Part shown: piece after piece, positions 36,354-39,764 of the stretch
How positions within the stretch are numbered: position 1 is the first letter of the stretch
Layout: the number at the start of each line of letters is the position of its first letter
Assembly: GCA_963784455.1 (NCBI GenBank)
Contig: CAWARN010000029.1
Coordinates: 120,868 to 184,867, forward strand
Direction of reading: 5' to 3'
DNA length: 64,000 bases
Origin: an uncultured Acidobacteriota bacterium
GTDB taxonomy: Bacteria; Acidobacteriota; Vicinamibacteria; Vicinamibacterales; Fen-181
Made by a program: the position numbers and the translations under genes
Notes under the pieces: generated by a model
The model's input: the letters and a program-made list of their open reading frames with translations, nothing else
Told to the model about the DNA's origin: nothing
The model's database searches: none

Positions 36354-38373
36354 TTGGATATCAAGTCGCCCGAGTTCTACGCGGAAATCGGCCTCATCTC
36401 CGGCCTCGAAGTTCACCAGCAGCTGCTCACCGAACGCAAGATGTTCTGCCACTGCCCGGCGCGCCGGTACACCGACACGCACGACGGCGAAGTGCTGAGG
36501 CACATGCGCCCGACGCTGTCCGAGCTCGGCGAGTACCGACGGCACGGCGCTGATGGAGTTCAAGACCAGGAAGAACATCATCTACCTGCTCCACAAGCAG
36601 AACGTCTGCACCTACGAGATGGACGACACGCCGCCGTTCCTGGTGAACCAGGACGCGGTGGACGTCGCCATCGAGCAGTGCCTGATGCTCGGCTGCGACA
36701 TCGTGGACGAGGTGCACATCGCGCGGAAGCAGTACCTCGACGGGTCGATCCCGACCGGCTTCCAGCGCACCGCGATCGTCGGCGTCAACGGTCGCCTGCC
36801 GTTCCGCGGGCGCGAGTTGACGATCCTCCAGGTGAGCGTCGAGGAGGATTCGTGCCGCGAGGTGTCCGACGAGGGACATCTGATCGTCTGGCGAACCGAT
36901 CGGCTCGGCATGCCGCTCATCGAGACGGTGACGGGACCGGACCTGCGCACACCCGACGAGGTGGCCGAGGCGATTCTGCTGGTGGGCCGAGTCTGTCGCA
37001 GCACCGGGCACGTCCGTGTCGGCATGGGTGCGAGCCGCCAGGACGTGAACGTGTCCGTGCGCGGCGGCCGCCGGGTGGAGATCAAGGGCGTGCCGAAGGC
37101 GAACTGGGCGCCGAACCTGGTGCACGGCGAGGCCATTCGCCAGGTGAACCTGCTCAAGCTGCGGGACGAACTGCTTCGGCGCGGGTTGACGACGCCCGAG
37201 TCGGTCGGCGTCGAGAGCGCCGACGTGACGGCGCTGTTCGCCTCGTCCGAGGCGGCCTTCCTCACGGTCGAGGGGTGGGAGAAGTATACGCGCGACGAGA
37301 AGCGCCGCCCGGGCTTCGAGCTGGGGGCCGGCAAGTTCACGGTCCGCGCGATCCGGGTGAAGGGCCTCGGCAGCACGCTCGCCTGGCCGACGCAGCCCGA
37401 CTGCATCTTCGCGCACGAACTGGCCGGGCGGATTCGTGTCATCGCCGGCCTCGACCAGCGGCCGATCCTGCTCCACAGCGAGAAGTGGCCCGACTATCAC
37501 CGGTCGCTGCAGGAACTGCGTCGGGTGCGCACGCACCTGAAGTGCAACCCTGAGGACGGCATCGTGCTGGTGTGGGGTCCGGACGAAGACACGATGACCG
37601 CGGCCAACGAAGTGCGGCTGCGATACGTCGACGCCCTCAACGGCATTCCGAACGAGACGCGTCAGCCGTTCGAGGACGGCATGACCGACTTCGAGCGGAT
37701 CCTGCCGGGCCCGGACCGGATGTACCCGGACACCGACAGCCCGCCGTCGCGCGTCACGAGAGAGCGTGTCGAGCGGCTGCAGGCGGCTCTGGCCCCCAGG
37801 CCGTGGGAGCGCCAGGCGCGCTACGCGGCGGCCGGCGTGCCGACGTCAACGATTCACTATCTCATCCGCCGCGGGGGAGCGCGCCTGGTGGACAAGGTGA
37901 CAGCGGCGCGTGACGACAGGGTCAAGCTGGCCTGCGTGCTGTTCGGCGAACAGCTGAAGGGCCTCCGCCGAGACGGCCTGTCGGTCGACGGCGTCCCAGA
38001 CGAGCGCTGGTGCGAGCTGTTCGCCGCGGCCTCGGCGCGCCCGGTCCTCTGGCAGGCGTGGGCCGAGATTGTCCGCGCGATGGCCGCCGCGCCGGGTACC
38101 GCCGTCGGCGTGATCGTGGCCGGTCTCGAGCTTGGCCGCGCGCCGGACCACTGGCGGCGGCGCGTCACCGAGGCGATCGCCGCCGCGGGCGCCAGGCTGT
38201 ACGCTCCCGGCGCGGACCGGCTGTTCCGGTTCTCGATGGGGCTTGCGATGCGCGAGCTTCGCGGCAAGGTTCCGGCGCTCGACGTCGCGGGCGCCGTCAG
38301 GGCGGAAATCGAAGGCGGAGGGCGGAGGCCGGCAGGCGGGACGATCACCGCGGAAACAGGGAGCGGGCGATGA
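36354..38373 (+). CDS. gatE: Archaeal-type Glu-tRNA(Gln) amidotransferase subunit E (GatE), one frameshift
   Basis: GLISGLEVHQQLLTERKMFCHCP, RPTLSELGEY | DGTALMEFK.., DDTPPF.VNQDAVDVAIE, DEVHIARKQYLDGSIPTGFQRTAIVG, RLGMPLIETVTGPDL, GASRQDVNVSVRGGRRVEIKGV, an inserted domain and a GatB/YqeY-like tail. An extra c at 36536/36537 (taCCgac) explains the split between ORFs 36354.. and 36553..38373. Confidence 0.85.
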
Positions 38374-39764
38374 GCACCCCGGCAGACGCATTGAAGGGAT
38401 ACAAGGGCCACGCGCGCGCCGCGCTCGAGCGCTGGGGTGTGCGCGTCTGGAGCGACGTCCAGGTGGTGAACGACGCGGGCAGCCACTTCGAAGGCGTCAT
38501 CCTTCCGCGCAGCGAAACCCAGGACGACCTCCACGTCGTCATCAAGTTGAAGAACGGGTACAACGTCGGCCTTGACGTCGACCGCCTGCGGGCGGTGAAG
38601 GAGGTCGGCTACAAGGAGGCGATCTACAAGATCCCCGAGAAGGAGTTCCCCCGCCGGCCCAACCTGCCGAGCGTCACGCTGCTCGGCACCGGCGGCACGA
38701 TCGCCTCGCGCCTCGACTACCGCACGGGTGCGGTCATTCCCGCGTTCACGCCGGGCGAACTCTATGGCGCGGTCCCCGAGCTGGCCGACATCTGCAACCT
38801 GACGACGAAGAAGCTGTTCGGCGTGTTCTCGGAGAACATGGCGAAGGAGCAATATCTCGTGCTGGCAGAGGCGATTGGCGAGGAGATCCGAAACGGTGCC
38901 GACGGCATCGTGATCGGCCACGGCACCGACACGATGGGACACACGGCCGCCATCCTGTCGTTCATGGTCCAGGATACGCCGGTGCCGATCGTGCTGGTCG
39001 GGTCGCAGCGGTCGAGCGACCGGCCGTCGAGCGACGCCGCGCTGAACCTGATCCACTCGGTCCGGTCCGCCGCGTACGGCGACATCGCCGAGGTGCAGAT
39101 CTGCATGTTCGGGCCGACCTCCGATCGGTACGGCCTGCTGCACCGCGGCACGCGGTGCCGGAAGATGCACAGCTCCTACCGGAGCACGTTCCGCACGGTC
39201 GGAGACATCCCGCTCGCGACGGTCAGCCGCGACAGCTTCACCTATCTCCACGACGAGTACCGCCGGCGGGACATGACGCGTCAGATCAAGGTCGACGCGG
39301 TGTACGAGGACCGGACGACCATCCTCTACTACTACCCGGGCATGTCGCCGGACCTCGTGGACGCGCTCGTCGAAAAGGGCTACCGCGGGATCGTGATTGC
39401 CGGCACCGGCCTGGGCCACGTCAACAAGCCGCTCTACCCGGCGCTGAAGAATGCCATCGAGAAGGGCGTGCACGTCGTGATGACCGTGCAGACCCTCTGG
39501 GGCTACGCGCAGATGTACGTCTACGACACGGGCCGCGACCTGCTCGAAATCGGCATCGTGCCGCTCGACAACATGCTGCCGGAGACGGCGCTCATGAAAC
39601 TGTCATGGGTGCTCGCCCACACCGACGATCACGACGAGGTGCTGCGCATGATGCGGGCGGTCGTGTCGCACGAGATCACCCTGCGCGAGCCGCACAACGG
39701 CTACCTCATCATGCAGGGCGGCCTCCCCGAGATCGAGGAGTTCATTCTGTCGCACTGGAAGTAG
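38370..39764 (+). CDS. gatD: Archaeal-type Glu-tRNA(Gln) amidotransferase subunit D (GatD, asparaginase-like)
   Basis: ATG 38370 overlaps the gatE stop (ATGA). N-terminal GatD-specific domain, then the asparaginase fold: LLGTGGTIASRLDYRTG, IVIGHGTDTMGHTAA, PIVLVGSQRSSDRPSSDA, IVIAGTGLGHV. Intact 464 aa. Confidence 0.9.
   Translation: MSTPADALKGYKGHARAALERWGVRVWSDVQVVNDAGSHFEGVILPRSETQDDLHVVIKLKNGYNVGLDVDRLRAVKEVGYKEAIYKIPEKEFPRRPNLPSVTLLGTGGTIASRLDYRTGAVIPAFTPGELYGAVPELADICNLTTKKLFGVFSENMAKEQYLVLAEAIGEEIRNGADGIVIGHGTDTMGHTAAILSFMVQDTPVPIVLVGSQRSSDRPSSDAALNLIHSVRSAAYGDIAEVQICMFGPTSDRYGLLHRGTRCRKMHSSYRSTFRTVGDIPLATVSRDSFTYLHDEYRRRDMTRQIKVDAVYEDRTTILYYYPGMSPDLVDALVEKGYRGIVIAGTGLGHVNKPLYPALKNAIEKGVHVVMTVQTLWGYAQMYVYDTGRDLLEIGIVPLDNMLPETALMKLSWVLAHTDDHDEVLRMMRAVVSHEITLREPHNGYLIMQGGLPEIEEFILSHWK

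Follow-up and report, generated by a model that had tools for sequence, protein, structure and literature searches.

The DNA analyzed here, referred to as the window, is a 64-kb stretch from an uncultured soil bacterium of the Acidobacteriota. At positions 36354-39764 it carries two adjacent genes, assigned from their sequences to gatE and gatD, which would encode the two subunits of a GatDE-type amidotransferase. An initial annotation, made from the sequence alone, had described the pair as an archaeal-signature operon in a bacterial neighborhood. The features of the locus, all on the forward strand and given in window numbering, are as follows:

36342-36347, forward strand: Shine-Dalgarno-like GGAGGA, 6 nt 5′ of the gatE TTG start, by direct reading of the sequence
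36354-36536, forward strand: gatE 5′ segment, residues 1-61, from the TTG start, by translation and by tblastn of the repaired GatE (frame 3)
36537-36537, forward strand: extra C, a +1 frame shift in gatE, seen as a gap column in the related loci L079, L001, L002, and L003
36538-38373, forward strand: gatE 3′ segment, residues 62-672 then TGA, in the +1 frame, beginning DGTALMEFKTRK
38370-38373, forward strand: ATGA overlap of the gatD start (ATG, 38370-38372) and the gatE stop (TGA, 38371-38373)
38370-39764, forward strand: gatD, an intact open reading frame (ORF) of 464 aa then TAG, with GatD_N and the asparaginase N- and C-terminal domains
34570-36315, forward strand: pccB (carboxyl transferase), the upstream neighbor, as a stop-to-stop frame with a Pfam Carboxyl_trans match of 672 bits

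The 5′ segment of gatE reads MDIKSPEFY..GLEVHQQL..KMFCHCP..PTLSELGEY and includes the His21 Mg-ligand motif; the 3′ segment supplies the remainder of the cradle/kinase core (E163 and E190), together with the inserted domain and a tail that is helical and YqeY-like. The initial annotation had taken gatE for one ORF running from 36354 to 38373. The extra C at 36537 splits the gene into two frames, so that GatE is not encoded by an intact ORF in the sequence as given, and although all the GatB/E-type motifs quoted in that annotation are present, they straddle a frame break that had gone unnoticed. Removal of the C gives a continuous 672-aa GatE, and this frame-repaired protein was scored against the GatE and GatB models. 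The ATGA overlap at the junction is present as first described and is read from the sequence as translational coupling of gatE and gatD. At the 5′ end of gatE, a DNA alignment shows that the block GGAGGA...CCGTTGGA(T/C)ATCAAG is kept in L079, L001, and L002.

Profile searches assign the pair to GatE and GatD, and not to GatB or a plain asparaginase. GatE exceeds the cut-offs of the NCBIfam models NF003107 (462.4 bits, cut-off 456) and TIGR00134 "gatE_arch" (389.9 bits, cut-off 319.55), whereas the six GatB equivalog models all miss theirs, with 57 to 137 bits against cut-offs of 315 to 680 (best score 136.7 against 338). GatD reaches 494 bits with NF003217 (cut-off 310) and 493.2 bits with TIGR02153 "gatD_arch" (cut-off 324); its score with the type I asparaginase model TIGR00519 (364 bits, cut-off 260.5) is about 130 bits below those of the GatD equivalogs. 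The inserted domain and YqeY-like tail that had been proposed for GatE, and the asparaginase fold with an N-terminal extension proposed for GatD, are both borne out by Pfam. The GatB_N match is stretched over GatE residues 16-472 for a model of 277 positions, which indicates an insertion of about 180 residues, and the YqeY-type tail (GatB_Yqey, residues 511-649) scores 25.7 bits, slightly below the cut-off of 27. In GatD, the GatD_N (PF18195), Asparaginase (PF00710), and Asparaginase_C (PF17763) domains each score above their cut-offs. Comparison with solved structures gives the same picture: GatE matches 1zq1_C (291 bits) and 2d6f_C (272 bits) over essentially its full length, the sequence alignment with 1zq1_C spanning chain residues 10-627 of 633, and GatD matches 1zq1_A (399 bits) and 2d6f_A (397 bits) likewise. 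GatB chains give only 32 to 84 bits with GatE, over residues ~90-280, and asparaginase structures give at most 131 bits with GatD.

The catalytic residues are retained in both subunits. In Methanothermobacter thermautotrophicus GatE, mutation of the Mg2+ ligands H15, E157, and E184 inactivates the enzyme (PMC2330236); the alignment with the archaeal chains places these at H21, E163, and E190 of the window GatE, and none of the three positions varies among the 59-60 bacterial GatE sequences covering them. GatD residues T110, T186, D187, and K265 align with T14, T91, D92, and K163 of Escherichia coli AnsA and are invariant in 81 sequences. The ratio of nonsynonymous to synonymous substitution rates (dN/dS), estimated by the Nei-Gojobori method between the window and five relatives, is 0.10 to 0.21 for gatE (0.10 with the nearest relative) and 0.05 to 0.18 for gatD, and these low values indicate purifying selection on both genes in this lineage.

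The DNA alignment around the frame break reads TAC-C-GAC in the window and TAC-GAC in L079, L001, L002, and L003, the inserted base being a 1-nt gain that creates a CC run. It is one of many such breaks. ORFs uninterrupted in L079, L001, and L002 match the window in two to five frames, and the genes split between frames in the window are hslV, hslU, gatE, the biotin carboxylase gene (accC), a small downstream gene, and tamB, with break points at ~28886, 29211-29258, 30166-30172, 30522-30543, 36537, 42707, 43404-43419, 43916, 44013, and 48114. About a dozen comparable breaks lie within ~21 kb (28830-48541), an estimated rate of ~1 per 1.6 kb. Because the relatives lack the extra C and so many like breaks occur in neighboring genes, we judge it most likely to be an assembly or sequencing indel and not a feature of the organism; the overall pattern fits an unpolished, error-prone assembly, not biology. 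At about one indel error per 1.6 kb, any ORF-based reading of the window needs care. A programmed +1 frameshift in gatE was ruled out: the extra base is absent from the four close relatives, no slippery motif was recognized at GAG-TAC-C-GAC, and many other genes of the window are broken alike. Among 70 related loci with gatE sequence, gatE is split only in L008 and L023, at other positions. L008, L023, and L079 share an "MFD" isolate label and contig naming, and these metagenome-assembled genomes (MAGs) may be long-read assemblies.

To place the window copy among its relatives, one genome per GTDB species was scanned with GatD as query. At least 575 stretches were confirmed, and the best 80 were analyzed with 10-kb flanks. 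All of these 80 are bacterial MAG records, 66 to 97% identical and from more than ten phyla, which contradicts the established view, repeated in the initial annotation, that GatDE is specific to archaea. The Acidobacteriota among them include Vicinamibacterales, Thermoanaerobaculia, Holophagales, Solibacteraceae, and Aminicenantes; other groups include Myxococcota, Gemmatimonadaceae, Zixibacteria, Eisenbacteria, KSB1, Latescibacterota (a complete 4.3-Mb chromosome), Ignavibacteria, Bacteroidota, Phycisphaerae, Planctomycetales, Cloacimonadota, CSSED10-310, and Woeseiaceae. Some of the bacterial contigs carrying gatD are 0.5 to 4.3 Mb long. A protein search with GatD returned at least 8000 scored candidates, of which the top 120 are 81 to 94% identical, 457-500 aa in length, and named GatD, from MAGs of Acidobacteria, Thermoanaerobaculaceae, Eisenbacteria, Deltaproteobacteria, and Fermentibacterales; bacterial proteins are thus already labeled GatD by the NCBI and IMG pipelines. 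The exact GatD sequence of the window is not on record in the assembly collection. The locus, which had been treated as a singular oddity, is therefore one member of a widespread bacterial clade.

Directly 5′ of gatD and on the same strand, gatE is found in 65 of the 80 loci, with a -4 overlap as the commonest spacing. When the ORFs lying within 7 kb of the pair in the window and the 80 loci were clustered all against all, no neighbor besides gatE and gatD proved to be conserved, and in particular no gltX, glnS, gatCAB, or tRNA gene. With a profile built from bacterial GatE, no gatB-like ORF was detected in 1.39 Mb (86 related loci and the window). The arrangement does vary. In L051, L061, L069, and L071, gatD lies at ~10001-11370 and no gatE is present within 10 kb upstream or in the fetched downstream flank, and in L047 and L049 (CSSED10-310), gatE lies ~3.3 kb from gatD and is encoded on the other strand, so that not every member of the bacterial clade has the tight operon. 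L085 (9301-12132) encodes a 943-aa GatE-GatD fusion (P0122) in which GatD is complete, the GatE part matches window GatE residues 7-482, and the helical/YqeY tail is lacking; its contig is bacterial-looking, with 65% G+C. A divergent bacterial GatD sub-clade is represented by P0271 (L084, 5671-12657, in the cluster of P0206) and P0125 (L086, 502-3829), whose GatD is 34 to 48% identical to that of the window and has no GatD_N Pfam match. In L084 and on the short L086 contig, asnA (aspartate-ammonia ligase) lies directly downstream of gatD, and in L084, two unrelated genes separate gatE from gatD.

The surroundings of the window copy are likewise bacterial, as judged from their sequences and as had been reported. 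A Pfam run on 30 further ORFs of the window identified UvrA, LpxC, Obg, DprA, a bacterial-type topoisomerase I, GidA/TrmFO, an XerC/D-type recombinase, two NtrC-type sigma-54 response regulators with kinases, an ABC-F protein, PccB, Phd/PIN, DUF1697, biotin carboxylase, TamB, POTRA plus Omp85 domains (BamA-type), and GT4 glycosyltransferases. No aminoacyl-tRNA synthetase, gatCAB, or tRNA gene lies within the 64-kb window. G+C content (0.67-0.70) and G+C at third codon positions (GC3, 0.85-0.90) of the locus match those of its neighbors and are continuous across the region, in agreement with what had been estimated by eye. Taken jointly, L079, L001, and L002 align collinearly with positions 28.2-49.9 kb of the window (~21 kb), at 76 to 90% nucleotide identity, and the order pccB-gatE-gatD is common to all three, which are Acidobacteriota/Vicinamibacterales MAG assemblies. 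Recovery of this order in three other MAG assemblies argues that the locus is not chimeric, and the contig names suggest different assemblers, so that the junctions would have been recovered more than once.

The longest pccB ORF starts at 34663, and the gap between the end of pccB and gatE is 38 nt; the two genes may be co-transcribed. A scan of 34000-40600 gave no promoter-like site; a terminator scan of the same interval gave none on the forward strand and matches at chance level on the other strand. The corresponding gap in L079, the closest relative (7433-7987), is ~550 bp longer than that of the window (36314-36353, 38 nt), which indicates that the promoter arrangement of gatE-gatD differs between close relatives. 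Downstream of gatD, a Phd-antitoxin/PIN-toxin module at 40399-41124 is read as a single ORF with both domains, and this fusion may be another frame error. At the syntenic position of L079, blastn gives no match to the stretch 39871-41130, which suggests an insertion peculiar to this genome.

To examine the origin of bacterial GatD, we made an exhaustive search of 50%-identity representatives, which gave 454 proteins at E <1e-30. Labeled archaeal representatives include Thermococcus (P0132), Nitrososphaerota (P0133), Bathyarchaeia (P0136), Desulfurococcaceae (P0139), and Candidatus Sigynarchaeota (P0129). The context of P0126 is plainly archaeal (S8e, Alba, eIF2-alpha, NMD3, and proteasome genes), with gatD unlinked to gatE. 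Among the divergent representatives, P0121 and P0206 (via its cluster member P0271) have bacterial contexts, that of P0122 is bacterial-looking, and P0125 comes from a short MAG contig. A neighbor-joining tree was constructed from 88 sequences and 421 columns with Kimura distances and 100 bootstraps, and rooted on E. coli AnsA. The 23 core bacterial GatD sequences sampled (the window and 22 loci) form a single clade in 98 of 100 bootstraps, and still do so in 96 when the four divergent bacterial representatives are included. In all 100 bootstrap trees, this bacterial group is nested among archaeal GatD sequences and never basal; no long inter-domain branch separates the two, and the usual sister of the bacterial clade is P0127, P0183, or the Sigynarchaeota sequence (Asgard).

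The tree topology suggests one old transfer from an archaeon to a bacterium, with a donor that was possibly Asgard-like. GatD proteins are 79 to 86% identical across MAGs labeled Vicinamibacterales, Polyangia, Myxococcales, Gemmatimonadaceae, and Woeseiaceae, which points to transfer among bacteria, so spread among bacterial phyla after the initial transfer is the best reading of the sequence data. The clade would be old, since GatE identity within it falls to 41-45%. The initial annotation had left two options, an old horizontal acquisition or a lineage-specific retention; nesting of the bacterial GatD proteins favors the former and disfavors the latter.

By analogy with the archaeal enzyme, GatE and GatD most likely form a working Glu-tRNA(Gln) amidotransferase, and all that the GatDE reaction requires is present and conserved, so we take the archaeal mechanism as a working model. 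The proteins would assemble into a GatD2E2-like heterodimeric complex. A glutamyl-tRNA synthetase of the non-discriminating type (ND-GluRS) would supply Glu-tRNA(Gln), which GatE would bind and phosphorylate on the γ-carboxyl with ATP/Mg2+ through H21, E163, and E190. GatD would hydrolyze glutamine or asparagine, with T110 as nucleophile and T186-D187-K265 as triad, and the ammonia would pass through an internal tunnel to GatE to give Gln-tRNA(Gln). The complex, the tunnel, and the substrate are all inferred from the archaeal counterpart; translational coupling, the conservation of the two genes as a pair, and the tRNA-Gln genes next to gatE in L044 and L042 lend this model indirect support.

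Two related loci connect the genes to tRNA. In L044, from a Deltaproteobacteria MAG, a tRNA-Gln(CUG) gene with a U1:A72 first pair (5661-5731, reverse strand) lies divergently ~140 nt upstream of gatE. In L042, from a Holophagaceae MAG (PLUC01000041), a tRNA-Gln-like gene (4188-4260, forward strand) immediately precedes gatE, on the same strand; it has U1:A72, G2, G3, the anticodon CUA, and C37, is followed by a hairpin with a T-run, is called tRNA-Pyl by ARAGORN, and scores 56.7 bits with the Rfam tRNA model. A possible role for it is that of an amber-suppressor tRNA(Gln) associated with GatDE. No copies of the L042 and L044 tRNAs were found in the other fetched loci, and a rough estimate of the chance expectation of a tRNA-Gln link in 80 loci is ~0.02. 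Archaeal GatDE recognizes A1:U72 of tRNA(Gln) (PMC2330236). From the sequences of the linked tRNAs, we infer that bacterial GatDE has probably changed its first-pair determinant and serves a U1:A72 tRNA(Gln).

Overall, we consider it highly probable that the window contains a genuine chromosomal gatE-gatD operon of an Acidobacteriota (Vicinamibacterales-like) bacterium for an archaeal GatDE-type amidotransferase, that the operon belongs to a large, strongly conserved bacterial clade derived from one transfer, and that the break in gatE is an artefact. The original observation is confirmed in part, and its interpretation is supported: the conditions named in the initial annotation as refuting it, a placement with GatB and type I asparaginases or a misassembled archaeal fragment, were checked and went in its favor. 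Several points weigh on the other side. As it stands, the sequence lacks an unbroken GatE frame; taxonomy labels of MAGs on short contigs may be wrong; and the tree is a neighbor-joining tree with a single distant outgroup, which makes the placement provisional. The two linked bacterial tRNAs have U1:A72 and not the archaeal A1:U72, so either substrate recognition must differ or the substrate is something else. Finally, neither an aminoacyl-tRNA synthetase nor a gatB gene is present in the window or in the 86 related loci, which makes a housekeeping role a presumption.

Of the other explanations, the most credible, although still unlikely, is that bacterial GatDE has been recruited to another amidation, such as that of Asp-tRNA(Asn), of a dedicated or suppressor tRNA, or of a non-translational substrate. 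The U1:A72 pairs where archaeal GatDE reads A1:U72 (PMC2330236) and the CUA anticodon of the L042 tRNA would be in keeping with this, as would the altered architectures of divergent relatives (the tail-less P0122 fusion, and P0206/P0271 and P0125 beside asnA), the loci with gatD and no gatE within 10 kb, and the GatCAB already present in the cultured Acidobacteria surveyed in 2014 (PMC3927822). However, of the linked tRNAs, that of L044 is a normal tRNA-Gln(CUG), every GatE domain and catalytic residue is retained in the clade of the window, and the inserted domain of archaeal GatE is thought to exclude the aspartyl-tRNA synthetase of the non-discriminating type (ND-AspRS) (PMC2330236); strong conservation and wide occurrence with no co-conserved accessory gene also fit a core translation role better. 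A vertical origin, in which GatDE would date from the last common ancestor and have persisted in these bacterial lineages, seems to us rather less probable again. Its presence in the last universal common ancestor was proposed by Sheppard and Soll, as cited in PMC9499178, and the bacterial clade is deep, with GatE identity down to ~41-45%; but nesting of bacterial GatD among the archaeal sequences in every bootstrap with no long inter-domain branch, the patchy distribution across bacterial phyla, and 79-86% identical GatD in MAGs of different bacterial groups, which points to transfer, are hard to reconcile with it.

The frame break could instead mean that gatE is a real, recently inactivated pseudogene, GatDE being lost since GatCAB or GlnRS suffices. 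The frameshift does stand in the given sequence, the gatE genes of L008 and L023 are also split, and redundancy is possible, given gatCAB in all six acidobacterial genomes of the 2014 survey (PMC3927822). We nevertheless regard this as very unlikely: the lesion is a 1-nt gain making a CC run that the four closest relatives lack, about a dozen like breaks affect hslV, hslU, accC, tamB, and other genes within ~21 kb, the L008 and L023 breaks lie elsewhere in gatE in MAGs sharing the MFD label, and gatE shows no further lesion and a dN/dS of 0.10 with its nearest relative. Misassembly or mis-binning of an archaeal fragment into a bacterial contig, which has nothing in its favor beyond the reputation of the family as an archaeal signature, is refuted by the bacterial records and the synteny, and its probability is negligible. 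The order pccB-gatE-gatD and the flanking synteny recur over ~21 kb in three other bacterial MAG assemblies, composition is continuous, every one of the closest homologs belongs to a bacterial MAG record, some on contigs of 0.5 to 4.3 Mb, and the archaeal P0126 has a quite different context with gatD unlinked to gatE.

Reviews from 2008 to 2022 describe GatDE as an archaeal signature found in archaea only and argue that co-evolution of GatDE with archaeal tRNA(Gln) kept GlnRS out of archaea (PMC8007984, PMC9499178, PMC8762117). No description of a bacterial GatDE was found in the full-text literature, a search whose coverage leaves out most subscription journals. The enzyme family is known; the surprise lies in the domain of its host and in how large the bacterial clade is. 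gatCAB was present in six of six acidobacterial genomes surveyed in 2014, and most Bacteroidetes have GlnRS without gatCAB (PMC3927822), a pattern that makes both coexistence with GatDE and replacement by it conceivable in different phyla. A bolder proposal, which we put forward tentatively and think possible rather than probable, is that GatDE is not an archaeal signature at all, that the old bacterial clade, spanning more than ten phyla, has been re-tuned from A1:U72 to U1:A72, and that it provides the main or only amidotransferase in many lineages. Under that proposal, GatCAB would have been replaced, or the two enzymes would share the work in archaeal style, with GatDE for Gln and GatCAB for Asn. 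It is a side possibility that GatDE of some Holophagaceae serves the linked tRNA-Gln-like amber suppressor. A large and conserved clade of GatDE in bacteria would offer a natural experiment on how the tRNA identity rules of a tRNA-dependent amidotransferase change once it has crossed domains. It also bears on how two such enzymes come to coexist or to displace each other, and on whether GatDE is usable as a marker of archaea when metagenomes are binned or checked for contamination. The window copy itself is an ordinary member of the clade in an error-prone assembly, and its own message is modest.

The closest known systems are the archaeal GatDE enzymes of M. thermautotrophicus (2D6F) and Pyrococcus abyssi (1ZQ1). 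The window pair has the same two subunits and domain sets, with GatD comprising GatD_N and a type I asparaginase fold, and GatE comprising the GatB/E core, the large insertion, and the YqeY-like tail; the catalytic Thr/Thr-Asp-Lys residues and the His/Glu/Glu Mg ligands are the same, and the NCBIfam equivalog cut-offs are passed. It differs in that the host is a diderm bacterium and the bacterial sequences form their own clade, in the tight operon of gatE followed by gatD with overlapping stop and start (gatD is unlinked in P0126, the sole archaeal context examined), and in the U1:A72 pair, instead of A1:U72, of the tRNA(Gln) genes beside gatE in two bacterial relatives. Relative to the P. abyssi protein, the window GatE has additional residues within its inserted domain and a short stretch added at its C terminus. 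GatCAB, the known bacterial route to Gln-tRNA(Gln), recognizes U1:A72 (PMC2330236). Both enzymes carry out the same overall reaction, and the core of GatE is paralogous to GatB; however, the ammonia donor in the window is the asparaginase-fold GatD rather than the amidase-fold GatA, there is no GatC, and GatE has an inserted domain that is absent from GatB and misses every GatB cut-off. Type I L-asparaginases (E. coli AnsA and archaeal homologs) have the same fold as the C-terminal two-thirds of GatD, from which they are distinguished by the ~95-residue N-terminal part of GatD, with its GatD_N domain, and by the coupled gatE.

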